From Patescibacteria group bacterium (GTDB lineage: Bacteria > Patescibacteriota > Minisyncoccia > Phycocordibacterales > Phycocordibacteraceae), in the NCBI GenBank assembly GCA_004322365.1, contig SCTS01000006.1, positions 160,756-224,755 of the forward strand: 64,000 bases of DNA. The letters run 5' to 3'. Positions 4,260-45,185 of this stretch are shown here, piece by piece (the first letter of the stretch is position 1; each line of letters starts with the position of its first letter). The notes beneath the pieces were generated by a model, which was not told the origin of the DNA, did no database searches, and saw nothing but the letters and a program-made list of their open reading frames with translations. Both the position numbers and the translations under genes were made by a program.

Positions 4260-5837
4260 TCATAATGTCTCTACAATCTCAAGAACAGAATCTGACTTAG
4301 CAACTTCTAGTCGAGTCGACATTGATTTAAACATTGCGACTGCCTGCTCATACCCAACTACCCACCCAGTCTGTCGAACACTGTTATAGAAAGGGGTGCG
4401 GAGCATATTTCCTGCCGTATCGTAGGTTTCAGGATATCCATAATAACGAACCATATTTTTTGAATATGCACCAATATGCCGTGCAGCACGCTCTAAGAAT
4501 AAATGCTGATTATCATATTCAGATAACGCAACAAGAACTTTTATAAACTCCGCCCCCCAGAAACTCCATATAGCGGTACCTCCATAGGACGCAACAAAAA
4601 GACGGACAATGGGTACTTGGCGTGACGCTCTGTTGGTTTGTTGATACCGCAAAGGGAATGGCATATCAATCCCTTCCTTTATCGTGTAGAGAGTTGCGCG
4701 CTCAAGATATCGCCTCTCATCAGACTTTGTGACATCCAAGAATCCAGTAAAGTATGCGGCCAACCAGTCTGCGGAATAATATTTTCCTGCTACCCCCTCA
4801 GAAGAACTATCTTCTAAAAAGTACCCTTCCTTCTCTTGCCAATAGGTCTCGAGAATACGGGTCTTTAACTTAGGGAGATCAACTGCAGGTATATTTTCTA
4901 TACCCAATGTCCGCGCCAGCATAAATGTTTTCCAAAAAATAACATTGTCATAAAATGCACTCGTGCGCACAGTGATGTCTTTCGCTGATGAAATATGAAT
5001 ATCCTTTTTAATTAAGCCTGTTTCCGTATCAAAAACTCGGTTGTAGTATTTCGTAATAAGAAGCGCTAGTGCATCACGATTCTCTTCGAGAAGATTCCCA
5101 GCGGCAGTCTTTGTCTCAAGTCCAAAACTATTTTCTGATTCAAAAGGATACCGCTTCACGAAAAAGGAGTTGTCGATAAGTGTCGATAAGCCAAAAAGAA
5201 CACCGTAGAGAGCGTCTGATGGATAATGATAGATATTTATACAACTCACCGCTCGAGGTCCTACTGGCACAATAGTGGTGGTACAATCGCCATTTTTTGT
5301 AAATGCAGCGATTGCATAGGCAACTGTTTGAAGGTAGATTCTCTGTCTATTTTCCCAATCACTTTTTCCTAATGCAGTTCGTGGATCAAGGGTTGCATAA
5401 TAAAACACACCAAGATTCCTTGGATAAAAAACATTAAAATGATCTCCTGAAATCAAATAGGGCCTCTTTGGATTGAATCGCACCTTATGAATATCGCGTA
5501 TAACGCCCTCGAGACTTCGGCTTCTTGCTTTCTCACCAGCATGCACATTGGAAACGATATGCCACGCACATTTCGCGTACGCAAAACCGTGCCAAAAGAA
5601 GGACTTACATACCTTAAGATTGAAACGCTTCAGAAGGGCGATGGTTCTCCCCTGTCGTCTTGTTTCAAATGGATTCTTAACGCGACTCATTCGACCATAC
5701 GGATTTGAGAATGCAGAGTACATAATCAACGCCACAAGCGTCACAATAAAAAAAATAGCGAAACCATCTGAATAGTAATGATGATGTCTCATATTCAAAC
5801 GCGCACTTGGAAAACTATAGAAAAACCCATGGTACAA
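4260..5837 (-). CDS. Hypothetical membrane-anchored protein, possibly an (alpha/alpha)6-type glycoside hydrolase
   Basis: 525-aa uninterrupted ORF with an N-terminal TM segment and a large aromatic-rich soluble domain. The glycosidase assignment is a guess from composition only. Confidence 0.45.
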   Translation of the reverse strand: MYHGFFYSFPSARLNMRHHHYYSDGFAIFFIVTLVALIMYSAFSNPYGRMSRVKNPFETRRQGRTIALLKRFNLKVCKSFFWHGFAYAKCAWHIVSNVHAGEKARSRSLEGVIRDIHKVRFNPKRPYLISGDHFNVFYPRNLGVFYYATLDPRTALGKSDWENRQRIYLQTVAYAIAAFTKNGDCTTTIVPVGPRAVSCINIYHYPSDALYGVLFGLSTLIDNSFFVKRYPFESENSFGLETKTAAGNLLEENRDALALLITKYYNRVFDTETGLIKKDIHISSAKDITVRTSAFYDNVIFWKTFMLARTLGIENIPAVDLPKLKTRILETYWQEKEGYFLEDSSSEGVAGKYYSADWLAAYFTGFLDVTKSDERRYLERATLYTIKEGIDMPFPLRYQQTNRASRQVPIVRLFVASYGGTAIWSFWGAEFIKVLVALSEYDNQHLFLERAARHIGAYSKNMVRYYGYPETYDTAGNMLRTPFYNSVRQTGWVVGYEQAVAMFKSMSTRLEVAKSDSVLEIVETL

Positions 5838-5846
5838 AAAAAATAA

Positions 5847-6377
5847 CTACGGCACGAGCTTTAAGAGTGTTTCGAAATTACCCCGAATACCTGGAGTTTC
5901 CGCACCCCCCTCATCTAACAATCCCTTTTTGATAACCAACTGACCACCCTCCTCAAATACACCGAGCTCCGTGCCTCCACCTGCCCACCAACAGATGGCG
6001 CCTGCCTGCTCACCTGCCACAAGCTGCCAGCTTGAATTCTTAATGTCCGTGCAGTTTCCTTCATAGGTACCCGCGCTATATTTCTTGTCATTCATCGCAA
6101 AAGTTACCTCGGTATGGGGTATTCCCTGCACCATGTCTTCACCAACATCAACAAAACTCCAAGTCATTGTTGGAGTAGGGCACGCTGTAAATTCGCACTG
6201 TGGACCGGCTCGCCCAACCGCACTTCCATCTGGGCAGATTTTAGCCTCCATAGTACATGCTACTCCCTGTGGTTTTGCTTGCGGTTGCAAGAAAAGAAAT
6301 CCTCCACCAACAACAACTATTCCTACTCCAATAGTAGCTATGAGTCCTATTTTCGTCATTTCTCTAGCGTAACACAC
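5847..6377 (-). CDS. Small Cys-rich membrane-anchored protein (paralog A of 44315-44866)
   Basis: 176 aa with an N-terminal TM helix. Shares EAKICPDGSAVGRAGPQCEFTAC and GTYEGNC...GEQAGAICW...GTELGVFEEGGQLVIKK with the protein encoded at 44315-44866. Confidence 0.6.
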   Translation of the reverse strand: MCYAREMTKIGLIATIGVGIVVVGGGFLFLQPQAKPQGVACTMEAKICPDGSAVGRAGPQCEFTACPTPTMTWSFVDVGEDMVQGIPHTEVTFAMNDKKYSAGTYEGNCTDIKNSSWQLVAGEQAGAICWWAGGGTELGVFEEGGQLVIKKGLLDEGGAETPGIRGNFETLLKLVP

Positions 6378-6412: not shown

Positions 6413-8098
6413 CTATTGCTTAAAAAATAGACGGGCAATACGAAGATCTTCATACGAGTACATACCATTAAAACGCTCAAATATCGGAGAAAGTCGTTCG
6501 ACTCCTTGGAGCTCAAATACCTCGTGAATAACCGGCAAGGCCTCTATAATATTCACTGAAAAAATGTTTTGTATATCATTCACTTCACATAAACCCTGCG
6601 CTATTATTTTTTCAACATGGTCAATAAGTGTCCCAACTTTTAATGATCGTATCTTGGCAATATCAGAGATGGAGTGACCTTCCTGTATCAGGATAAGTGT
6701 TTTAGAAAGTGTACTGGATTTTTCTTTTTTGCTCTGAATATTCTTCTCTGATTCAAATGTTCCTCCGCATGCACGAATAAAATTTTCTTCCATACCCGCA
6801 TGCTCTGCATCACTCATCTCCTCAAAAACTGCCCGTGCGTCCTCAGACTTAATACGAAATTGTGCATCCTGTTCAGCCACTCGAGGGTGCACCAAGAGTG
6901 CCCGCTCGCTCCACCCTAGAAGATGAAGCCCTCGGAGGGTTCGTACCCTTGAGAGAGCGACATACCCATGCCCATGCTCGAATACTTGCGAGAGGTCAAT
7001 TGCAGCAGCGTCCATACTCATACCTTGGCTCTTGTGTATGGTCATGGCCCATGCAAGTCGAAGTGGCACCTGATTAATCCGTGCACGCACCTTACCGTTC
7101 TGTTCAACAGCCCACTCCATAGGCTCCACAGTAAAGACTCGCCCATCTTTCGTTTTTACAATTGGATATGAATTCTCTTCATTAAACCCGATAACAACCC
7201 CAAGCGTGCCATTTGCAAATCCGATACTTGGATTGTTCTTCGTACACATCACCACTGCATCCTTCTTGAGAAAAAGTTTTTCGGGAGAGAGGCATCCCCG
7301 TTTGAGACCGAGAATGAGATTATCACTCCCCTGTGCAGTCATCACAAATTCTGTTGGCTGACCCTTCAGTTTAGCGAGTGCATCCGCGTTAATGCGATCT
7401 ACATCCATATTGTGTGCAAAAAGTCGTGGAATTTTATGTGAAACCTCCTCCGGAGATACTGCTCTATCTTGAAAACACAACAGAGTATCCTCATCGGCGA
7501 CACCCGACCTAATAGAAGCGAGAGCAGAAAGGAATACTTCATCTTCTTGTCTATGCTGTTCAGTGAGGTAACAAACAATTGGATTGACGGCCTTCCAGAC
7601 CGCAGACTCAAAAGCAAATGACGCTCGTGAAGCCCCTCGTTTAGAAACTGGTGGGAGTTGGAAAAAATCACCAACAAATATTACTTGTATTCCACCAAAT
7701 ACTTCTTGACTACGGTGTACCTCTCGCACCACGGCCTCTGCTAAAGCTAAGGTTTCTCCAGACAGCATTGAGACCTCATCGATAATGAGTATGCGTGATT
7801 TTGTTATTCGCCTTGCCACATGCTCTTTCCCTGCAATGGCATCAACATCCTGCTCTGATAGATGCTCTGCAATCCCTATACCACTCCAAGAGTGTAATGT
7901 AATGCCTCCAATGTGTGTCGCTGCAATACCTGTTGATGCGGTGATGGCAGGTTCAATTCCTTTACCTCGAAGCCATGCTACATATTCATTTACGGTGTGG
8001 GTCTTTCCACTTCCAGGTTCACCTGTCAAAAAAACATTAGCGCCCGTCTTCAAAATCGTTAGTGCATCATTCTGCGTCATCGACACAGGGTACCGCAA
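6413..8098 (-). CDS. PIF1/RecD-family ATP-dependent DNA helicase with C-terminal HTH domain
   Basis: 561 aa. Walker A motif GEPGSGKT, an AAA_30/UvrD_C-like layout (ILIIDEVSM, QLPPV, VALSRVR) and a C-terminal helix-turn-helix-like tail. Confidence 0.8.
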   Translation of the reverse strand: MRYPVSMTQNDALTILKTGANVFLTGEPGSGKTHTVNEYVAWLRGKGIEPAITASTGIAATHIGGITLHSWSGIGIAEHLSEQDVDAIAGKEHVARRITKSRILIIDEVSMLSGETLALAEAVVREVHRSQEVFGGIQVIFVGDFFQLPPVSKRGASRASFAFESAVWKAVNPIVCYLTEQHRQEDEVFLSALASIRSGVADEDTLLCFQDRAVSPEEVSHKIPRLFAHNMDVDRINADALAKLKGQPTEFVMTAQGSDNLILGLKRGCLSPEKLFLKKDAVVMCTKNNPSIGFANGTLGVVIGFNEENSYPIVKTKDGRVFTVEPMEWAVEQNGKVRARINQVPLRLAWAMTIHKSQGMSMDAAAIDLSQVFEHGHGYVALSRVRTLRGLHLLGWSERALLVHPRVAEQDAQFRIKSEDARAVFEEMSDAEHAGMEENFIRACGGTFESEKNIQSKKEKSSTLSKTLILIQEGHSISDIAKIRSLKVGTLIDHVEKIIAQGLCEVNDIQNIFSVNIIEALPVIHEVFELQGVERLSPIFERFNGMYSYEDLRIARLFFKQ

Positions 8099-8140: not shown

Positions 8141-8399
8141 TCATTTCTCAATATTCCTGTGTATAAGTGTAATTTTTTCTTCTCGAGTTAATCTTTTTAG
8201 TTCTGCTTCACGAGCACGAGCCTGTGCAAAGCTTGTGCATATTTCTGTGTATTTCAGCACAACAGGTCTCCTAATTTTTGTATAGTGGGCACCCTGCTGA
8301 GGCATGATTATGCTGATGGACTCGTTTTTCCAAATTAACAGTAGATCCAATATAAAGGCTCGTATCAGCGCACTCTAAAATATAAACAAAGTGAGACAT
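8141..8399 (-). pseudogene. GIY-YIG nuclease family gene (UPF0213/YhbQ-like) disrupted by a frameshift
   Basis: The N-terminal half (MSHFVYILECADTSLYIGSTVNLEKRVHQHN..., ATG at 8399) stops at a TAG at 8271-8273. The C-terminal half (..AHYTKIRRPVVLKYTEICTSFAQARAREAELKRLTREEKITLI) is in another frame (ORF 8141-8350). Confidence 0.6.
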
Positions 8400-8518: not shown

Positions 8519-9067
8519 TTAATATTGTACTCGGATGGCACGCTCAAGACGGAGTGGGTTCGTCGTAATGCATGTGTTGTAACCTTGCGAGGCAATAACT
8601 GTTTCGGTTGGATAAAAAGTTTTAGTAACCGTCACGGTAATGCAAGGATTGGCCACTCCTCCGTCAAGTGGGAAAGAAAACACGCTGGTGTATGTTGGAC
8701 GGAGTACCGTGCCCCCTGAGGTGCGCGTTACATCTGCCAAACCACCTCCACAAGCAACCTGTGTGAGCGCTGATGTTGTTGCAAATGCATTCTGTTTTGT
8801 ATCCCAATAGAGAGCGCACTCGATTCCGGTATCAGCTGCAAAAAAAGCAAATTGTGACTCACGACCTGATGACGAAAGGATAATTTCTTTTGAGAGAATA
8901 TTAAAAATTGCCGAACCAATAGCAATGAGTATGCTACTAATCAATACTGCGAGCAGAAGAGTGAATCCCCGTGAGCTACGAGAAAAGGCTTTTTGAGTTA
9001 ATGAACTCGCACCTGGAACCTGGAACCTGGAACCTATTTTTTCTTTCATACTCATGGTCCTGCCCAA
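8519..9067 (-). CDS. Minor pilin / pseudopilin with prepilin-type N-terminal segment
   Basis: 182 aa. Long leader, then G|FTLLLAVLISSILIAIG, a hydrophobic helix typical of type IV pilin N-termini. The leader contains the (CCTGGAA)3 heptamer array. Confidence 0.6.
   Translation of the reverse strand: MGRTMSMKEKIGSRFQVPGASSLTQKAFSRSSRGFTLLLAVLISSILIAIGSAIFNILSKEIILSSSGRESQFAFFAADTGIECALYWDTKQNAFATTSALTQVACGGGLADVTRTSGGTVLRPTYTSVFSFPLDGGVANPCITVTVTKTFYPTETVIASQGYNTCITTNPLRLERAIRVQY
9012..9035. repeat. Heptanucleotide tandem repeat (CCTGGAA) x3.4 inside the minor-pilin leader
   Basis: Sequence acctggaacctggaacctggaacct. Encodes ..SRFQVPG.. of ORF 8519-9067. Confidence 0.9.
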
Positions 9068-9618
9068 TTAAAAAGATGCTCAGTAACCTGAAACGACCTG
9101 CTAATTCCAACCGATACCCAAGAGATTCTCACCTTCACTATTACTTCGTCAACACTACCTGCAACGGGCGTAATAGAAAGAACTCTAGTAAAGGCTGACG
9201 CAGGCCCGCTCGTTGCATCCTGATTGTATAATTTTGTTGCACTACTTATATATATGGGAGGACAGGTACTCAGAACACCGCATGCACTGTGGGTAAAACG
9301 AGGAAAATCAACCACACATGATGCCCCAACGCAGTCACCAAGATTGGTAAGCCACGATGCGTTAGCAAGATAGTTTTGATCACGCTGGGCTCTCACATAT
9401 TCCACCGCTTCCTGCGCAAGATAGAAAGCAGTCACTTGATCCCGTGCGTAATATGCGAGACGAAGAGATTGTGCAGCAATTGAGAGCGGCCCGACAAGCG
9501 AAACCAATAACACCGTAATCGCCACAAAGGTCTCAATCAAAGTAAACGCGCGAATTACTTTCGCTTTTCTAGAACCTGAAAGCTGAAACCTGAAAGCTGA
9601 AAGCTGGTTGTTTTTCAT
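9052..9618 (-). CDS. Minor pilin / pseudopilin (prepilin-type N-terminal cleavage/methylation domain)
   Basis: 188 aa with RAFTLIETFVAITVLLV (Glu at +5). The leader codons are built from five heptamer repeats. Confidence 0.7.
   Translation of the reverse strand: MKNNQLSAFRFQLSGSRKAKVIRAFTLIETFVAITVLLVSLVGPLSIAAQSLRLAYYARDQVTAFYLAQEAVEYVRAQRDQNYLANASWLTNLGDCVGASCVVDFPRFTHSACGVLSTCPPIYISSATKLYNQDATSGPASAFTRVLSITPVAGSVDEVIVKVRISWVSVGISRSFQVTEHLFNWAGP
9573..9607. repeat. Heptanucleotide tandem repeat (AACCTGA/AAGCTGA) x5 inside the minor-pilin leader
   Basis: Sequence aacctgaaagctgaaacctgaaagctgaaagctgg. Encodes ..QLSAFRFQLSG.. of ORF 9052-9618. Confidence 0.9.
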
Positions 9619-9620
9619 AT

Positions 9621-10310
9621 TTATATATCGAGGACTCTTTGAACAACGCTTGCCTGCACGGTAAATGTAGTTGTGCCCCCCGGAACTACCGCTGAACCCT
9701 TAATACGCATAAGAACGCGGGGCTGTATGCCATCTCCTTTCGCTGAGCCAACAACATAAAAATCGAAGCTATCAATTGAGACTTCGGGTGCAGTAATCGC
9801 AATCCAACTACCGTTAGCACCTCCACGCAAAGAACGCTCAAGTTGTGTACCGTTTAACCGATAGACAACTTGGTCATTCGCGTCAGTCAAATTGCCTGTT
9901 GACGACTCGAACGCAAGAAGACGAGCTCCACCCAAAGCGCAATCTTGTGGATTTGCAATTGTTGAAGACGGTGGAGGAGATGGGGGTGTTGTGGCAGAAG
10001 TAACGCAATTATATAAGGTGCCTACACGAATGGATCGTGACATACCTTCGACTGCTGCACTCAAGTTGTTCATGACTGAGTGGATTGCCTGCGCACGGTG
10101 GTTTGTAGCCACAAGTGACAATAACCCGCCAACCCCAACCATCATAACAATGGCGAATATTGTTACCGCAACCATCATCTCAATCAGAGTGAATCCGCGC
10201 GCTGTTTCCTTTCCACCTGTGCGGAGCAAAGTACCTATACGAAAGACTGAGACTTGGGCAAACGCCCCGGAGTGGTCTTTCGTATAGGTACTTTGTGTAG
10301 TTTTTTTCAT
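9621..10310 (-). CDS. Minor pilin / pseudopilin (prepilin-type N-terminal domain)
   Basis: 229 aa with RGFTLIEMMVAVTIFAIV. Confidence 0.7.
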   Translation of the reverse strand: MKKTTQSTYTKDHSGAFAQVSVFRIGTLLRTGGKETARGFTLIEMMVAVTIFAIVMMVGVGGLLSLVATNHRAQAIHSVMNNLSAAVEGMSRSIRVGTLYNCVTSATTPPSPPPSSTIANPQDCALGGARLLAFESSTGNLTDANDQVVYRLNGTQLERSLRGGANGSWIAITAPEVSIDSFDFYVVGSAKGDGIQPRVLMRIKGSAVVPGGTTTFTVQASVVQRVLDI

Positions 10311-10972
10311 GGATTTGTTACTGAAATCTGACCGGTTGAGGCAACTTTAACCGTGCGCGTTTCACCTGATGGAGATGTCACTACTATTTTGCCACTTGAA
10401 TACACAGTAGAAGTATTGGAAGAAAATAAAGCGTCTGGATCAGGTCTAAAAAAGACAACATCTAGATGATCAATCCCACTCGGAGAACATTCTTGAACTC
10501 CGCTTGCCGTGATGCCACAAAAACTTTTTACGGTGTGACCACGACTAATTGAAAATGTCTGCACAATTGAATCAATTCCACTGTCGTAGCGTTTATTTGC
10601 ATTTGTATCAACAAAAAATGTATATGAGGATGCGCCAGCAAAACGGAGGCCATATCCAACCTGGAAATTACTACCGTATTGTTTTACAGACAAACCATAC
10701 ACCTGTGCCTCACGAATCGATAGCGCAATATCATACGCAAGACTTCCAAGAAGAACGGAGCTATTAAAACGAGAGTGGTTTGCAAGAACCACGAGTGAAA
10801 TGATAGAAAAAATACCCATCACCACAAGAAGCTCAATGAGTGTTAAGCCACGAACGACGAAAGATTTTTTAATCCTCCCTGAAAGCTGAGTGTTCCCTTC
10901 GGAACCGACGAAGCGTCGCCTAGAAGCTGGAAGCTGGTTGTTCATTGGAACCATAATAGATTGGCGAGCCAC
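10307..10972 (-). CDS. Minor pilin / pseudopilin (prepilin-type N-terminal domain)
   Basis: RGLTLIELLVVMGIFSI. The real start is probably the ATG at 10945 (MNNQLPAS...), whose ATGA overlaps the pilD stop. The leader contains a (GAAGCTG)2 heptamer array and a 24-nt repeated motif. Confidence 0.7.
   Translation of the reverse strand: MARQSIMVPMNNQLPASRRRFVGSEGNTQLSGRIKKSFVVRGLTLIELLVVMGIFSIISLVVLANHSRFNSSVLLGSLAYDIALSIREAQVYGLSVKQYGSNFQVGYGLRFAGASSYTFFVDTNANKRYDSGIDSIVQTFSISRGHTVKSFCGITASGVQECSPSGIDHLDVVFFRPDPDALFSSNTSTVYSSGKIVVTSPSGETRTVKVASTGQISVTNP
10922..10937. repeat. Heptanucleotide tandem repeat (GAAGCTG) x2 plus adjacent copy 1 of the 24-nt motif CGGAnCCGACGAAGCGTCGCCTA
   Basis: Repeat at 10922-10937 and motif at about 10899-10922 (22 of 24 nt identical to copy 2). 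Both lie inside the leader coding sequence of ORF 10307-10972. The motif recurs at 41341-41363. Confidence 0.85.
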
Positions 10973-11787
10973 GACCCAAGTGAGAGCGGTGAAAGCGTCG
11001 TGAAGAGAGCGAGGCCAATGCCAAAAGCAAGAAATGGCACGAACGGCAACTCTGTTTTCATGGTAACCCGGGCACCGTGAGGCAACAATCTTTTTTTTGA
11101 ATGAATAGAGGATAAAAGAAAAATTATCAAGTAAACAATTGTTGCAGACCAGACTCCAAACATAACTGATTCAATACCTCGAAACAGTCCGAGTAAGAGC
11201 CCGGCCGCACCAACAACATATGCGTCACCGACGCCCATACCTCGCCCACGAGTAACAAGAACAATACTGAAAAAACCACCAAACAAGACGGCACCGCCAA
11301 TAAGGGAATCAACAAGTGGAAAAAACGAATTGCTAAACAAACTCTGTGCGATAGAAGCTACAAGCGCTGAACCAGCAAGCATATACACAAAAGGCATAGG
11401 CACTAATGTGTGTCGTGTGTCGTATGCAACTAAAGCTACCAAAGATGCGAGAAAAACAAGGAGCATGGCGAATGCCAGAATTGACCAGAGCGATAAAACA
11501 GGTGGCATTATAAAAAATGCCACTAAAAAAAGAAGTCCGACTATACCCTCAATCAATGGATATTGAATCGAAAGCGCGCTTCCACATGTGCGACAACGGC
11601 CTGATAGCGCCACATACGAAAAAATAGGGATTAGGTCATACCAAGAGATTGGCATGTCGCATGCCATACAACACGAACGCGGACGAGAATGTTCGATGAA
11701 GCCAAAGCGAAACACTTGAACATTAACAAAGCTTCCAACACAGAGTCCGATACCGAACACAAAAAGCGGGAGAAGTACTTCAAGCAT
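10942..11787 (-). CDS. pilD: Prepilin peptidase PilD (A24 family)
   Basis: 281 aa polytopic membrane protein. N-terminal CxxC...CxxC zinc motif (CCMACDM...CRTCGS) and a GVGDAYV aspartyl-protease region. Confidence 0.85.
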   Translation of the reverse strand: MLEVLLPLFVFGIGLCVGSFVNVQVFRFGFIEHSRPRSCCMACDMPISWYDLIPIFSYVALSGRCRTCGSALSIQYPLIEGIVGLLFLVAFFIMPPVLSLWSILAFAMLLVFLASLVALVAYDTRHTLVPMPFVYMLAGSALVASIAQSLFSNSFFPLVDSLIGGAVLFGGFFSIVLVTRGRGMGVGDAYVVGAAGLLLGLFRGIESVMFGVWSATIVYLIIFLLSSIHSKKRLLPHGARVTMKTELPFVPFLAFGIGLALFTTLSPLSLGSWLANLLWFQ

Positions 11788-11873
11788 ACAGAGAAGTATA
11801 CCTCGTGAGATAACCCGCTAACACGAATTAAAAAATCCCCCAATTGGGGGATTTTTTAAAAAGGAAAAACTCT

Positions 11874-12326
11874 CTACGGCTTTACATCAAAGATTGGATC
11901 CGTACCTGCAAAGTCGGCACTGGAGCCAGTACAAATGGTACCCGCAGCTGCGTCGATGTCTCCAGTAAGAGCCTGGTTGGTAGTCTCTTCGAAGGTTGCA
12001 CCGAGGTGGTAGCTCGTACAAGAAGCGCCAGTACCAAGCGCTGCGTATCTGTAGGCTGCATTGCCTACAGGGTCAGTAGGAACAACACCGATGTAGGTAG
12101 GAGCAAGGCCTGCAAGTGTCGTTGGGTATGCTGAAGAGTTTGAGTCAGAGTAAAGAGCGAGTGCGATCTGTAGTTGTTTGATGTCAGAGACACGGCGTGC
12201 ATCGCGTGATTTCAAACGAGCAGTGTTCAGAGATGCCAACACGACCGATGAGAGGATACCAATGATGGCAATAACGACGAGGAGTTCGATGAGGGTGAAA
12301 CCTCGTTTTGTTGAAGTAAGGTTCAT
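11874..12326 (-). CDS. pilA: Major type IV pilin
   Basis: 150 aa with KRGFTLIELLVVIAIIGILSSVVLASL, ARDARRVSDIKQLQIALALY and C-terminal Cys residues. Confidence 0.8.
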   Translation of the reverse strand: MNLTSTKRGFTLIELLVVIAIIGILSSVVLASLNTARLKSRDARRVSDIKQLQIALALYSDSNSSAYPTTLAGLAPTYIGVVPTDPVGNAAYRYAALGTGASCTSYHLGATFEETTNQALTGDIDAAAGTICTGSSADFAGTDPIFDVKP

Positions 12327-12344
12327 GGTTTTATGAATGGATTT

Positions 12345-13553
12345 TTAAATCGCAGCAGAAAGATTGTAAATCGGCACCAAGACCGATGCTAATAGTATAC
12401 CAACCCCTAAGCCTAGAGTAACAATCATAATTGGCTCAATAAGACCAACGAGTGTATCTACGCTCGTTGAAACCTCTCTTTGATAAAACTTCGCAAGGGT
12501 CTTTAAAATACTACCTAATTCACCCGTCTCTTCACCGACGCGCATCATCGCAACCATAATTCCAGGTACTTCTTTGCGTTTTTCGAGAGCCCCAGATACG
12601 GAGCCTCCTCCTTTCACTGAAGTTGCAACTTCTTGCAAAATATCTGCATAGACTGCATTGCCTACAACATTTGCTGTCACATCCACAGCTTGCACCACAG
12701 AAATACCCGACCCGAGCATCGTGGCAAGATTGTCAGCGATGCGCGATAGATAGAGCTTCTTGTACAAATCGCCCACATAGGGAATAGCGAGTTCAAACGA
12801 ACTGAACGATGCTCGTCCTTGAGGTGTACCTGCGTAGCGGAAAAGAAAGACACCTCCAACAACGAGAAGTATGAGAAGGAATATGCCGTAGTTCACAAAA
12901 AAGTTACTGATAGCTATGACTACCTGTGTGTACACGGGTATTGCTTGTCCTGCATCAATAAGAATTGAAGAAATACGTGGGATGACCATGGTCATCATAA
13001 GGATCATAACGACAAAGAATGTTGCTATAACAAACGCTGGGTAGATGAGTGCATTTTTTGCTTTACTCATCACTTCGTATGATCGATCAAGATAGTCAGC
13101 AAGATAGAGGAATGTCTCATCAAGCTTACCTGACTCTTCACCAGCCTTCACCATGTTCACATAAAATGCACTGAACACTTTTGGATGTTTTGAAAGCGCT
13201 TTAGATATTGGACTACCTGACTGAAGATCATCCCCTACCTCGGTCAAGACCCTACCCAAAAGAGGCTTCTCAGATTCTGACGCAAGGAGACGAAACACGC
13301 GAAGTGCGGAGACTTGTGCTTCAAACAATGTTGCGATTTGGCGTGACAATAAAACAATGTCGCGATTCGTAACACTTTCAAACAAAGTAATACCACCCAA
13401 GAAAGATTTTTTTTCAGGATCAGACTCTTCAATTGCTGAAATAGTGAGGGATCGACGCTGTAGTGAAGCAATGGCAACATCACGGGATATTGCATCAATG
13501 CTCCCTTCTTGCTTTGCTCCACTCGCATCAATTGCTTGGTATTTAAAGAGCAT
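12345..13553 (-). CDS. pilC: Type IV pilus assembly platform protein PilC (GspF family)
   Basis: 402 aa with two GspF-like repeats and three TM segments. Confidence 0.85.
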   Translation of the reverse strand: MLFKYQAIDASGAKQEGSIDAISRDVAIASLQRRSLTISAIEESDPEKKSFLGGITLFESVTNRDIVLLSRQIATLFEAQVSALRVFRLLASESEKPLLGRVLTEVGDDLQSGSPISKALSKHPKVFSAFYVNMVKAGEESGKLDETFLYLADYLDRSYEVMSKAKNALIYPAFVIATFFVVMILMMTMVIPRISSILIDAGQAIPVYTQVVIAISNFFVNYGIFLLILLVVGGVFLFRYAGTPQGRASFSSFELAIPYVGDLYKKLYLSRIADNLATMLGSGISVVQAVDVTANVVGNAVYADILQEVATSVKGGGSVSGALEKRKEVPGIMVAMMRVGEETGELGSILKTLAKFYQREVSTSVDTLVGLIEPIMIVTLGLGVGILLASVLVPIYNLSAAI

Positions 13554-13565
13554 ACAATCTATATA

Positions 13566-14627
13566 TTACATAAGGCGCGAAAATGCCTTAGGATTCCACG
13601 TTCTCGAAAGTGCATTCTCTGGCGTAACTTCTCCGCGACGTACCAAGTCCGCAAGACAGCGATTCATATCAATCATCCCCGACTCTGTACCTGTTTCAAT
13701 CACTGCATTAATTTCATGGGTACGCTTTTCACGGATAAGATTTGCCACTGCGTCATTATTAATCAAGAGCTCGTAGGCAGGAATGAGGCCTCCAGATATT
13801 CGTGGGACAAGTCTCTGTGAGAATATCCCTGCCAATGATGCAGCAAGTTGAAGACGAATTTGATCCTGCTGACCTGTTGGAAATGTATCGATAATGCGAT
13901 CAATAGTCTGAGCAGCATTGTTGGTGTGAAGCGTTGAAAGCACAAGGTGTCCAGTTTCAGCTGCGGTCACTGCTGCTGCCATGGTCTCAGGTCCACGCAT
14001 TTCCCCTACCATGAGCACATTAATGTCTTCACGGAACGCAGACAGAAGAGCCGCTTGAAATGTTTTAGTGTCGAGCCGCACCTCACGCTGATTGATAATT
14101 GAGTTTTTCGATGTGAACATGTATTCAATCGGATCCTCAATAGTAATAATGTGCTCAGTGCGTGTTTGATTTATTTTTTCCACCATTGATGCAAGTGTTG
14201 TTGATTTTCCTTGACCAACAGGACCTACAACCAAGAAGAAACCTTGTTGTAATTGGCAAAATGTCTCAAGAATTGGCGGTAACCCTAATTCTTCAAGTGA
14301 CTTAATCTCTTTCGGAATCAAACGGAGCGCAATGGACACTGTTCCTTGTTGAAAGAATGCATTGCCGCGAAACCTCATTTGATCTTTATACTGATACGAA
14401 AAATCTACCTCTTGATCTTGCTTAAATGATTGTAATTTTTCTGGTGGAATGAGTGCGCCCAAGATTCCGAGAGTGTCTTCAGGTGTATATTTTGCACGCT
14501 TCAAAAGTGGTATAAGCGTACCTGAAGTGCGAATGATTGGGTTAGAATTTGCAGTTACATGTAAATCGGATGCTCCTTCAGCAATAACAGTATCTATAAG
14601 CGACTCAAGTTCGGATTTGTATTCCAT
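13566..14627 (-). CDS. pilT: Twitching motility retraction ATPase PilT
   Basis: 353 aa with SDLHV, Walker A GPVGQGKSTTLASMV and Asp/His boxes. Confidence 0.85.
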   Translation of the reverse strand: MEYKSELESLIDTVIAEGASDLHVTANSNPIIRTSGTLIPLLKRAKYTPEDTLGILGALIPPEKLQSFKQDQEVDFSYQYKDQMRFRGNAFFQQGTVSIALRLIPKEIKSLEELGLPPILETFCQLQQGFFLVVGPVGQGKSTTLASMVEKINQTRTEHIITIEDPIEYMFTSKNSIINQREVRLDTKTFQAALLSAFREDINVLMVGEMRGPETMAAAVTAAETGHLVLSTLHTNNAAQTIDRIIDTFPTGQQDQIRLQLAASLAGIFSQRLVPRISGGLIPAYELLINNDAVANLIREKRTHEINAVIETGTESGMIDMNRCLADLVRRGEVTPENALSRTWNPKAFSRLM

Positions 14628-14629
14628 AA

Positions 14630-15031
14630 TTATGTAAGATGCGTCGCAGCAATTGCCAATGTTTTTTGCAAAACCTCAGAAGGTATCGAGCTTGCCTTAA
14701 TGATGTAGCCAGATGCACCAAACTTCAATCCTTTGTCTATGTCCTCCTGAAGGCCTTGATTGGTAAGCATGACAATTACTGCACCTTTCGCAAGATTTTC
14801 TTTTTTAATTATCTCCAAAAGCTCAAACCCTGATACCCCCGGCATGACAACATCAAGCAGAATAATGTTCGGCAAAAAACCTTTTCGCAGTTTTTCAAGG
14901 GCAAGATTAGGGTCTGGAATTGCTTCAACAGTATGCCCTTCGTTTTTAAATTTCAATGTATACATATCTAAAAGAAACCGATCGTCATCGACGAGAAGAA
15001 TGGAATAGTTTTTTTGAGTAGTTGGCTCCAT
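14630..15031 (-). CDS. Stand-alone CheY-like response regulator receiver protein
   Basis: 133 aa with ILLVDDD, a phospho-acceptor Asp (LLDVVMPGVSG) and a C-terminal conserved Lys. Embedded between pilB and pilT. Confidence 0.75.
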   Translation of the reverse strand: MEPTTQKNYSILLVDDDRFLLDMYTLKFKNEGHTVEAIPDPNLALEKLRKGFLPNIILLDVVMPGVSGFELLEIIKKENLAKGAVIVMLTNQGLQEDIDKGLKFGASGYIIKASSIPSEVLQKTLAIAATHLT

Positions 15032-15033
15032 AA

Positions 15034-16812
15034 TTACGGCAATTTTTCGTCGGCTTCCTCGTCTCGAAGAAGTTCACCGCCAAGGGTGTTCACTTCTTCG
15101 AAAGGAATAGTACCTTTGAGCATTTTCATAATAGCATCCTCTTTCATCGTAAACATGCCTTGTGCACGCGCTACTTTGTACAATTCATCTTCAATTGGGT
15201 TAGCAAGAATGGTGTGCTCTAGTTCAGGCGATGTAGGCAACATTTCAAACACCGCAACACGCCCACGAGTACCGTTAGCGCACGTTGGAGATGGAGCAAT
15301 CCCATAGACAGTTTTTGCTGCAGGAAGTTTTTTCTTAAATTCAGCAGGTATATCAGCGAATTCTTTTTCAATCATAGTAGCCACAGCACCCTCAAAAGGA
15401 ATAGGTTTACCAGCATCTTCACAGCGAAGCCGAACGAGTCTTTGTGCAATAGACAGAATAAGTGTTGGTGCAATCAAGTACGGGTCAACGCCCATGTCAA
15501 CAAGTCGGGGCACGATACCAATTGCATTATTAGTGTGGAGCGTGGTGAGAACTAGGTGTCCGGTGAGTGCTGCTTGAATGGCAAGCTGCGCTGTCTCTTT
15601 ATCGCGAATTTCTCCCACCATGATGATGTTAGGGTCTTGACGCAATATGGAACGCAGTCCCGACGCGAATGTATAGCCAATTTCTGGACGCACCTGTGAC
15701 TGCGACACACCGTCGATGTCATATTCTACTGGATCTTCAAGAGAGACAACATTCATTCCTTCACGATCAAGCTCCTGGAGCATCGCGTAGAGCGTCGTCG
15801 ATTTACCAGAACCTGTTGGACCAGAAATAACAATAATTCCATAGGGTTTTTTAATTGCTTTTCGAATCGTTTCAGAGTTTTCGTCCGTCAGTCCAATGTC
15901 ATTGAGTTTCTGTGTTTGAAGTCGACGATCCAAAATACGCATCACCACCTTTTCGCCGTGATAGGTTGGAAATGTTGATACACGAAAGTCTACGCGCCTG
16001 GCATCTATGGTTGCAGAAAAACGGCCATCTTGTGGTTTTCTTCTCTCGTCAAGCTTAAGGGATGAAAGCACCTTAATACGTGCAATAACAGAACGCTCTA
16101 GGTTTTTAGGTAATCTGAGCGACGTATAGAGCACGCCATCAACACGAAAACGGACCTTCAATTCCTCTCGCGTTGGTTCTATGTGAATGTCGGACGCCTT
16201 ACCGTCAACAGCATACCGAAGAATAGTTGCAACAATTTTTGTAACAGGAGCATCTTCTTTTATTTTGACATTTCCCTTTTCAGCATCAGTAAGTTTCTCG
16301 CTTGGTGCTTCTTCAAGAGCCACACTGAGTTCATCGTCATCTCTAGCAGTGCTTTGCAACTCCCCAAGTGCCTGCCCCACCTCACCAGAAAGACCTTTGT
16401 ACATTCCAATAATTTTGTCGAAGTCTTCATCGGAGATAAGAAATATCTTATACGGAACATTCGTACGCGAAGCAATGAAATTAAGGGCTTCTACTGCGTC
16501 AAGGTTATCTGGATCAGTAGTGCCAACCTCAAGCACACCATCGTTCAGCGCGAGGGGAGCGAAGCGGTAATGACGAGCAGATTCTTCTGGAATATAGTTC
16601 AGTACCGCAAAAGGGACGACGTCCTCACCAATCTCATGCGTTGGTACTGAGTAATACTCACCACGAGCACTAAGAATGTCACTTGCTGACACCCCCCTAT
16701 CTAAGAGGGCCTTCTCAAGAGTTTTGGAACTTGTTGCAATCTCCTCTTTAATACCCGCAAGAGCATTTTTATCAACGAGACCTTTCTCCGAGAGGAGGGA
16801 AAGAACATCCAT
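15034..16812 (-). CDS. pilB: Type IV pilus assembly ATPase PilB (GspE family)
   Basis: 592 aa. N-terminal GSPII_E_N-like domain and Walker A GPTGSGKSTTLYAML. Confidence 0.9.
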   Translation of the reverse strand: MDVLSLLSEKGLVDKNALAGIKEEIATSSKTLEKALLDRGVSASDILSARGEYYSVPTHEIGEDVVPFAVLNYIPEESARHYRFAPLALNDGVLEVGTTDPDNLDAVEALNFIASRTNVPYKIFLISDEDFDKIIGMYKGLSGEVGQALGELQSTARDDDELSVALEEAPSEKLTDAEKGNVKIKEDAPVTKIVATILRYAVDGKASDIHIEPTREELKVRFRVDGVLYTSLRLPKNLERSVIARIKVLSSLKLDERRKPQDGRFSATIDARRVDFRVSTFPTYHGEKVVMRILDRRLQTQKLNDIGLTDENSETIRKAIKKPYGIIVISGPTGSGKSTTLYAMLQELDREGMNVVSLEDPVEYDIDGVSQSQVRPEIGYTFASGLRSILRQDPNIIMVGEIRDKETAQLAIQAALTGHLVLTTLHTNNAIGIVPRLVDMGVDPYLIAPTLILSIAQRLVRLRCEDAGKPIPFEGAVATMIEKEFADIPAEFKKKLPAAKTVYGIAPSPTCANGTRGRVAVFEMLPTSPELEHTILANPIEDELYKVARAQGMFTMKEDAIMKMLKGTIPFEEVNTLGGELLRDEEADEKLP

Positions 16813-44314: not shown

Positions 44315-44866
44315 TTACGGAACATCAGAACCCAAGATCCGCACTACCTCAAATGCACCGCGAGCGATAGATGAACCATCTTTCCCTACTGATAGTGGTG
44401 CTTTTTTCAAAACTAACCTACCTTGTTCTTCAAAGACTCCAATTTCAGTACCTGCAGTCTCAAACCAACACGCCAGTCCAGCTTTTTCACCTTCCAAAAG
44501 TGGCCACTCTGGAACACCTATTTCTGCGCATGAACCCTCATATGTCCCGACGGAGGATTCTTTACCATTAAGAGAAAGCGATACAGTAGCGAGTGACGCA
44601 CCGGCACGGCTTTTACTGCCTGAATCACTCACAATCCAGTTGTACACAGGAACCTCGCATGGAGTAAACTCACATGCTGGACCTGCTCGCCCAACAGTGC
44701 TCCCATCTGGACAGATTTTCGCTTCCTCAGTACACGCACTCGTATGTGGCACAACAATGGTGGGGGTACGGACAAAAAAGAACCAAGCACTGATGACCCC
44801 AACACATATAACAACACTAAAGAAAGCCCACTGAGACTTTGTCGACATCACACTAGTGTACCTCAA
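44315..44866 (-). CDS. Small Cys-rich membrane-anchored protein (paralog B of 5847-6377)
   Basis: 183 aa with a TM helix, then EAKICPDGSTVGRAGPACEFTPC ... GTYEGSC ... GEKAGLACW ... GTEIGVFEEQGRLVLKK. Confidence 0.6.
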   Translation of the reverse strand: MRYTSVMSTKSQWAFFSVVICVGVISAWFFFVRTPTIVVPHTSACTEEAKICPDGSTVGRAGPACEFTPCEVPVYNWIVSDSGSKSRAGASLATVSLSLNGKESSVGTYEGSCAEIGVPEWPLLEGEKAGLACWFETAGTEIGVFEEQGRLVLKKAPLSVGKDGSSIARGAFEVVRILGSDVP

Positions 44867-44876
44867 ATAGAGAATA

Positions 44877-44906
44877 CAAAAAAAGGCGCCGTCGGCGCCT
44901 TTTAGG
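44877..44906. terminator. Hairpin terminator (GGCGCC-GTC-GGCGCC flanked by A/T runs)
   Basis: Sequence aaaaaaaggcgccgtcggcgccttttagg. Confidence 0.55.
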
Positions 44907-45008
44907 TAAGTTATTTTTTCTTATCTTTCTTTGGTTTCTTTTTATCCTTACGATGTGTTTCTCCTTTTGCCATAGAGTACATGATATTTAAATAATGTTT
45001 TTATACTA

Positions 45009-45185
45009 TCATGTCTTTACTATTACCTTCCTCCCATGACAGACACTGCATATAAGCGACATATGTTGCCATTCACCATTTTGTTTTCTGTATCCGCGCT
45101 CTTCAGTACCCCATCCATTACAACGATGACATTTTTCTTCAGTAGAATTCAAAAACACCTCTCTTCCTAAACCTTTAAAAACCAT
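45009..45185 (-). CDS. Small zinc-ribbon protein, hypothetical
   Basis: CHRCNGWG...CSVCHGRK (Cx2C...Cx2H). The ORF track extends it to 45299, which would overlap map. Trimmed to the internal ATG at 45185. Confidence 0.4.
   Translation of the reverse strand: MVFKGLGREVFLNSTEEKCHRCNGWGTEERGYRKQNGEWQHMSLICSVCHGRKVIVKT

Follow-up and report, generated by a model that had tools for sequence, protein, structure and literature searches.

The 64,000-nucleotide window analysed here (positions 160,756 to 224,755 of contig SCTS01000006.1, assembly GCA_004322365.1) comes from a Patescibacteria group bacterium and carries on its minus strand two genes for small membrane-anchored, Cys-containing proteins, called A and B in this work, each adjacent to the gene of a large nucleoside triphosphatase (NTPase). 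Both proteins are present in the databases as 'hypothetical'. A preliminary description of the window had taken them as paralogues because of four shared sequence blocks, and all four were found: EAKICPDGS(A/T)VGRAGP(Q/A)CEFT(A/P)C, GTYEG(N/S)C, GE(Q/K)AG(A/L)(I/A)CW and GTE(L/I)GVFEE(G/Q)G(Q/R)LV(I/L)KK. The paralogy is borne out by pairwise alignment (BLASTP, 71/155 identities, 46%, E 2e-45), in which the similarity spans the entire mature protein and is not restricted to low-complexity sequence.

Both proteins are composed of three parts: an N-terminal signal anchor, a module of 26-27 amino acids (aa) with four Cys, and an all-beta domain of ~105 aa, hereafter the C-domain. Table 1 gives the open reading frames (ORFs) as listed by the ORF-finding program, together with the parts of the proteins and the other features of the window. 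As judged from the sequence, translation probably starts at internal ATG codons, which are ATG 6359 for A, giving a protein of 170 aa, and ATG 44848 for B, giving a protein of 177 aa with a GAGG 12 nucleotides (nt) upstream. These starts are preferred since the resulting lengths match those of the orthologues, which have 170-176 aa for A and, with a single exception of 191 aa, 174-179 aa for B. Each listed ORF contains seven Cys, in line with the six to seven counted before. Six of these, four from the module and two from the C-domain, are predicted to be extracytoplasmic; the seventh lies within the transmembrane (TM) helix in B and, in A, within an N-terminal extension which is probably not translated.

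Table 1. Features of the window and their positions (AF2, AlphaFold2; pLDDT, predicted local distance difference test).
Feature	Position	Strand	Remarks
Paralogue A, listed ORF	5847-6377	minus	176 aa, GTG start
A signal-anchor TM helix	6288-6350	minus	aa 10-30 of listed ORF, AF2 helix
A four-Cys module CTMEAKICPDGSAVGRAGPQCEFTAC	6180-6257	minus	AF2 pLDDT 86-91
A beta C-domain ('X domain')	5850-6173	minus	~105 aa, Cys pair C109/C129, keeps family motif CWWAGGGTELGVF, pLDDT ~97
Paralogue B, listed ORF	44315-44866	minus	183 aa, TTG start
B signal-anchor TM helix	44771-44842	minus	aa 9-32 of listed ORF, AF2 helix
B four-Cys module CTEEAKICPDGSTVGRAGPACEFTPC	44657-44734	minus	most constrained segment of B
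B beta C-domain	44318-44650	minus	Cys pair C113/C133, AGGG turn replaced by ETAG (CWFETAGTEIGVF), AF2 pLDDT >90
PIF1-type helicase with C-terminal HTH_40	6413-8098	minus	upstream of A, context only
961-aa ATPase, DUF8128 (PF26449), TraD/VirD4-like P-loop	41361-44246	minus	downstream of B, context only
Terminator-like hairpin	44881-44903	minus	10-bp stem, 6 G-C pairs, T-run; between end of secY-adk-map array and B
Lys-rich micro-ORF MAKGETHRKDKKKPKKDKKK	44911-44973	minus	20 codons, just upstream of hairpin and B
ORF with double CxxCxGxG-type zinc-ribbon motif (CHRCNGWG...CSVCHGRK)	45009-45185	minus	~58 aa, right after map
GH18 protein, secreted	1635-2858	minus	
~510-aa protein	4260-5837	minus	likely start ATG 5792, N-terminal TM
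Small GIY-YIG protein	8141-8350	minus	upstream of PIF1
Type IV pilus cluster, complete	8519-16812	minus	directly upstream of GIY-YIG gene and PIF1
PilB-like ATPase	15034-16812	minus	pilus gene
PilT-like ATPase	13566-14627	minus	pilus gene
PilC-like	12345-13553	minus	pilus gene
Prepilin peptidase	10942-11787	minus	pilus gene
Major pilin		minus	pilus gene
Minor-pilin-like genes (four)		minus	pilus genes

The C-domain is the part that A and B share with a large family. A profile of this domain alone, seeded on A and B, was run against 1.84 billion representative proteins, and at least 404 clusters (50% identity) were matched at E<=1e-3, with 290 at E<=1e-10. The 404 clusters align across profile positions about 2-108, and A and B are both full-length members. 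With 140 family members A shares 30-57% identity. An additional 94 homologues were recovered, none with a precomputed Pfam match, and every member of the family bearing an organism name is from the Patescibacteria. The genome of the window is placed in the Paceibacterota (Parcubacteria) of the Patescibacteria, and all related loci with an organism title belong to that group. The typical member is a protein of 130-180 aa made up of the TM anchor, a linker (median 20 aa, rich in A, T, S, P and E) and the domain; the four-Cys module is present in just 19 of the 164 members compared.

The domain is recognised by the motifs GTYxGxC and CW[WF]AGGGxE[IL]GVF and by one invariant Cys pair, exactly two Cys being present in 244/246 family domains. 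The turn motif written as CW[WF]AGGGxE[IL]G[VI]F is carried by A and not by B. A looser version, with W/Y/F as the first aromatic residue, W/F/Y as the second, I/L/V third from last and V/I/L next to last, occurs in 155 proteins out of a set of ~285, some of which are outside the family. Near-invariance is seen for Gly and aromatic residues, three Glu and one Arg; no recognised catalytic residue set was found among the conserved C-domain residues. The AF2 model of A, based on a 141-sequence alignment, has a pLDDT of 90.3 overall and an eight-stranded beta domain.

Neither A and B nor ten other members of the family had a match in Pfam, NCBIfam, PHROGs or PADLOC, and for A and B there was no Pfam match at E<=0.1. 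A sequence search of the PDB with the family profile and with a triple-module sequence returned nothing (best E 0.7), and Foldseek against the PDB gave no convincing relative (best E 0.41, TM-score at most 0.26). Hits to cystatin and NTF2-like folds may be an artefact of the model, in which the TM helix is packed on the sheet. The C-domain is an undescribed family without a detectable relative of solved structure, in agreement with the preliminary description, where no family had been recognised. An internal duplication of the beta domain was discarded after a negative hhalign comparison of its two halves, and a phage origin was discarded as no relative was found in IMG/VR.

A TM-like segment is found at the N-terminus of 216/227 family members, with a net charge of +1.25 before and about 0 after it. 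A and B both have such a signal-anchor helix with preceding positive charge, and the single N-terminal helix that had been proposed for each is also predicted by AF2. Positive charge before the TM segment and nearly none after it imply an N-in/C-out orientation, which would place the Cys-containing part outside. The extracytoplasmic placing of this part, with its invariant module Cys and its conserved C-domain pair, is consistent with what had been suggested before; the disulfide bonds, which had been part of the same suggestion, are to be taken as predicted. Anchoring of A and B as lipoproteins was rejected, since no lipobox precedes the first Cys, which is situated ~10 residues past the TM segment.

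The four-Cys module has the pattern C-x6-CPDG-x9-C-x4-C with all four Cys invariant, and A and B both conform to C-x6-C-P-[DN]-G-x9-C-x4-C. Conservation extends to T/E/A/K following the first Cys and to V-G-R and E-F on either side of the third. The module profile, padded with native flanks for the homologue search, matched 318 proteins. The best 120 of these are all of 51-74 aa and contain, after a short linker, a single module followed by ~3 residues; a signal anchor is present in 80 and a lipobox-like signal in 36. The consensus of these 120 stand-alone proteins is vACTmEAK[IL]CPDGSaVGRtGPnCEFaPCP, with most positions more than 90% conserved. Between unrelated host proteins the module is 70-90% identical, a uniformity which may be due in part to the word-based search favouring highly similar copies. 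Some proteins carry it in tandem, and in others it is joined to Gmad2, cupredoxin, S26 signal peptidase, PKD, Hint or DUF333 domains; it usually comes right behind the membrane anchor, and in A and B it sits where ordinary family members have the flexible linker. On these sequence grounds the module is autonomous. There is no Pfam or NCBIfam model for it, stand-alone and tandem-module proteins gave only matches at the level of signal peptides and lipoboxes, and the CPDGS motif did not occur among the listed results of a literature search on the motif and on Patescibacteria.

The stand-alone module proteins (P0286-P0405) are spread over Woese-, Roizman- and Pacebacteria, Minisyncoccota and Spechtbacterales. 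Additional domains without a confident Pfam match were seen in some members of the C-domain family, among them a C-terminal one of ~105 aa with an EDSRCPxDVxCIQAGTV motif in P0082 and P0093, and an N-terminal one of ~170 aa with a GDLNGDG (FG-GAP-like) motif in P0069, P0095 and P0151.

In a neighbour-joining tree the A and B proteins form sister clades. Both clades have the module, so the duplication came after its acquisition. Measured against orthologues, A has a ratio of nonsynonymous to synonymous substitution rates (dN/dS) of 0.07-0.12 and B one of 0.17-0.25; this purifying selection indicates that both are functional, and a pseudogene or chance ORF was rejected, dN/dS being well below 1 and the family large. 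Among B orthologues pN/pS is 0.12-0.24 in the module, 0.17-0.35 in the C-domain and 0.33-1.3 in TM segment and linker. The adjacent ATPase has a dN/dS of 0.007-0.026, with 99.5-99.7% aa identity at a dS of about 0.36. In genomes where the ATPase is 99.5% identical (dN/dS 0.007-0.014) B is only 76-86% identical (dN/dS 0.20-0.25), and the dN/dS of B amounts to 10-30 times that of the ATPase. In B the AGGG turn of the C-domain is replaced, by ETAG in the window and by ENAG, ARDG, QRSG or GATG in relatives. B is a derived, diverging copy.

The resemblance of A and B to database proteins is of two kinds. They belong to the TM-anchored beta-domain family of the Patescibacteria, exemplified by UniProt A0A1G2N9W4 of Candidatus Taylorbacteria ('Uncharacterized protein'), and have in common with it the signal anchor, the domain length, the Cys pair and GTYxGxC, and in the case of A also CW[WF]AGGGxE[IL]GVF; they differ in carrying a four-Cys module where a flexible linker is usual, and B furthermore by the loss of the AGGG turn and, in the copy of the window, of the conserved DEG Glu. 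With the stand-alone four-Cys mini-proteins and lipoproteins (51-74 aa) and with the module fusions they share the same 27-aa module, which is the entire mature polypeptide in the mini-proteins, whereas in A and B the beta domain comes after it. A number of known systems were compared without a match. Competence or pilus accessories (ComEA; the pseudopilins ComGC/PilX) have no Pfam match in A and B, while the neighbouring pilins do match N_methyl or PilX_N. The bitopic VirB8/PrgL-type component of type IV secretion systems, which is placed next to the ATPases of these systems, has an N-terminal TM segment and an NTF2-like alpha+beta ectodomain, and the latter is not found here. Neither sequence-family membership nor a significant fold match links A and B to the PliI/MliC lysozyme inhibitors; they lack the central alpha-helix wrapped by a five-stranded sheet in the mature domain and the conserved QxVxG loop of cystatins; and they do not show the internal tandem repeat of two four-stranded blades of the two-blade beta-propeller lectins RSL and BambL.

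As stated in the preliminary description, A lies directly downstream of the PIF1-type helicase gene (gap of 35 nt) and B directly upstream of the 961-aa ATPase gene (gap of 68 nt, 44 to 200 nt among orthologues). The ATPase of the window has weak matches to TrwB, TraG, TraD and HerA, and DUF8128 (PF26449), on which nothing was found in a literature search, is annotated in its orthologues. It matches phrog_5156, of unknown function, over nearly its whole length (E 8e-73), and its gene always has the map end of the ribosomal gene array on one side and ndk on the other. Its ATG is preceded by a TATACT box at 8 nt and by no Shine-Dalgarno sequence.

Four genomes hold both paralogues in the same two arrangements as the window, which are pilins - GIY-YIG - PIF1 - A - orf525 - orf222 - ... 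- GH18 for A, and secY - gmk - adk - map - B - DUF8128 - ndk - beta-CASP nuclease for B. The family gene adjoins PIF1 in the A lineage only and the DUF8128/TraD-like ATPase in the B lineage only. In loci L006 and L007 the gene at the B-type position, of 43% identity, is preceded by PAP2 and separated from the ATPase by a CAP-domain gene; in L003 a two-component system takes the place of the pilus genes. The loci of distant members are of other kinds, including metG - tatD - X - rpsF - ssb - rpsR and fusA - X - tuf, where X is the family gene, and further neighbours are rpoC upstream with gdh downstream, SOUL, DoxX, glyoxalase and PP2C genes, and unknown small membrane proteins.

A metagenome scan contributed 72 further loci. 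In 47 non-redundant loci outside the A and B lineages, with 527 kb of flank, a DUF8128 homologue within 10 kb was found in none and PIF1 in three. In a scan of 52 non-redundant loci with up to two genes per side, covering the first 150 of 162 flanking proteins, these belonged to 115 different Pfam families, the commonest being TatD and ribosomal protein S6 with five each. The preliminary description had seen in the repeated pairing with NTPases a possible sign of DNA handling at the membrane, such as a competence accessory. This suggestion is not supported, as both adjacencies are confined to two sister sub-lineages; homologues are widespread and show no family-wide NTPase linkage, which is close to what had been named there as speaking against it. 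The NTPase neighbours represent gene order inherited within one lineage, and a functional link is not supported by them.

The reading of A and B which we favour, and to which we would give a little better than an even chance, is that of constitutive, membrane-tethered, outward-facing proteins with a non-enzymatic beta domain and a Cys module serving as a rigid, independent foot. They are duplicates arisen inside one Paceibacterota lineage and belong to a family of small bitopic envelope proteins. An uncleaved signal anchor would insert them N-in/C-out, so that two units, each folding independently, would be exposed on the outer side of the membrane. The one nearer the membrane would be the 27-aa four-Cys mini-domain, in place of the flexible Ala/Thr/Ser/Pro/Glu-rich stalk, and the other the ~105-aa eight-stranded antiparallel beta domain, locked by the invariant Cys pair. 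The mini-domain would be separately functional and dock or space the beta domain, and this in turn would be a binding or structural module of the envelope, whose ligand may be the wall, a glycan or a partner protein. A, which keeps all family motifs, would be in the ancestral position; B, which evolves faster and has lost the AGGG turn, would have been inserted into a variable slot between map and the ATPase gene. Both would be expressed like ordinary housekeeping envelope genes, independently of PIF1 and of the DUF8128/TraD-like ATPase. In favour of this independence are the varied neighbours of the family, the strong terminator-like hairpin ahead of B, the TATACT box and missing Shine-Dalgarno sequence of the ATPase gene, the variable gap and intervening CAP-domain gene between B-type genes and the ATPase, and the much slower evolution of the ATPase. 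A more speculative extension, which we regard as possible and rather doubtful, is that the module is a device peculiar to ultrasmall bacteria and dedicated to envelope docking or metal binding, and B a fast-evolving surface determinant directed toward host or phage.

Several points weigh against the favoured reading. The binding role is deduced from size, fold type and residue conservation, and the three near-invariant Glu and the one Arg could be catalytic. The four Cys of the module could form disulfides or bind metal. B is directly upstream of the ATPase in 7/7 distinct B-lineage genomes seen, and a functional link with the ATPase specific to the B lineage is conceivable. The 3/47 loci with PIF1 within 10 kb (L025, L028 and L039) compare with 0.5-0.9 expected (P about 0.02-0.06). 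Finally, a GH18 gene recurs near family genes in separate lineages: the secreted GH18 is within about 2-3 kb of them in the A lineage, GH18 is also at ~2-3 kb in L048, L056, L058 and L065, and in L090 it is beside a family fragment. In a subfamily of 276-282 aa, genes for PAP2-like and DgkA-like membrane proteins lie between GH18 and the family gene, and this recurrence of GH18 with PAP2 and DgkA is a weak hint of an envelope context.

The part of these points which concerns the NTPases could be accommodated if B worked with the orphan VirD4/TraD-like ATPase, and A with PIF1 and the type IV pilus cluster, as accessories of motors in DNA uptake or transfer at the membrane. The two adjacencies are real, on the same strand and shared by every close relative; A is preceded by a full type IV pilus cluster, the GIY-YIG gene and PIF1; and tatD and ssb are beside more distant family members. 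Homologues of VirD4-type coupling proteins (type IV coupling proteins, T4CPs) number thousands in the Patescibacteria, where they are mostly orphans far from virB4 and possibly exapted (PMC12102498). The 961-aa ATPase may be one of these, and the published data are consistent with an orphan ATPase of unclear role and have no bearing on the small proteins. We nevertheless consider such accessories unlikely. The absence of DUF8128 from the 47 loci argues against them, and the PIF1 genes in the three loci, more frequent than expected, have 1-4 unrelated genes between them and the family gene, lie on the opposite strand in L028, and are never in an operon-like arrangement. The CAP-domain gene of L006 and L007 splits the B-type gene from the ATPase, L003 does without the pilus genes, and B and the ATPase differ 10-30-fold in dN/dS. 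A and B have no helix-hairpin-helix, prepilin or VirB8-like features, and their ectodomain would point away from cytoplasmic motors. The proximity of ssb says little, since rpsF-ssb-rpsR is a universal housekeeping operon.

The recurrence of GH18, together with the PAP2 and DgkA-like envelope genes, would fit a beta domain acting as membrane-tethered inhibitor or immunity protein against a glycan hydrolase (PliI/MliC-like) or a protease (cystatin-like), by which the bacterium's own wall would be shielded, for example from the secreted GH18 or from host enzymes. MliC, a small beta protein held at the membrane, offers a likeness. We think this improbable, since Pfam links A and B to none of the MliC, PliI and cystatin families, the packing of the helix in the model may have given rise to the cystatin and NTF2-like hits, the QxVxG-like string of A (QLVAG) is not conserved across the family, and most family loci have no GH18 nearby. 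A different view would put the functional core in the Cys-rich part, as a surface site for metal (Zn/Cu) binding or thiol redox chemistry, with the beta domain as an adaptor. The invariance of its four Cys, its 70-90% identity across unrelated host proteins, its position as the most constrained part of B, the tiny tethered proteins of which it makes up the entire mature part and the cupredoxin domain among its fusion partners all point in this direction. Anoxic groundwater, moreover, is the habitat of many Patescibacteria, and disulfides are less favourable there. Such a core has a low probability in our opinion, as the C-x6-C...C-x4-C spacing is unlike the classical zinc-knuckle pattern and the word-based search inflates the apparent conservation of the module. 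Since the module is missing from most members, the family as a whole cannot have it as its core function.

Other genes of the window deserve mention. The micro-ORF upstream of B is identical in L001, L008 and L009 and its C-terminal MKKPKKDKKK is kept in L002, L011 and L012; this conservation makes it probable that it is a real tiny gene. The zinc-ribbon ORF after map is conserved in L001, L008 and L009 and more diverged in L002 and L012. In the A lineage the gene after A is always that of the ~510-aa protein, for which close relatives show 97-99% identity (dN/dS 0.02-0.06) and sequence searches of Pfam, NCBIfam, PHROGs and the PDB found nothing. The small GIY-YIG protein accompanies PIF1 and/or the family gene elsewhere as well: in L003 its gene lies between those of PIF1 and A, and in L039 (6427-6570) and L063 (12267-12533) it is close to family genes.

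The outcome of the analysis is a useful annotation result and a caution rather than a surprising new system. The caution concerns guilt by association, by which a small protein beside a DNA motor is taken as an accessory of DNA handling; here it breaks down beyond the synteny of close relatives, and inference of this kind is risky in small, syntenic genomes. The annotation result consists of two domain families which are candidates for the domain databases, the apparently Patescibacteria-specific beta domain and the very conserved four-Cys mini-domain. The Patescibacteria make up a large share of bacterial diversity. Their life in attachment to, or dependence on, other cells gives surface proteins a central place in their biology, and most of these proteins are unannotated.

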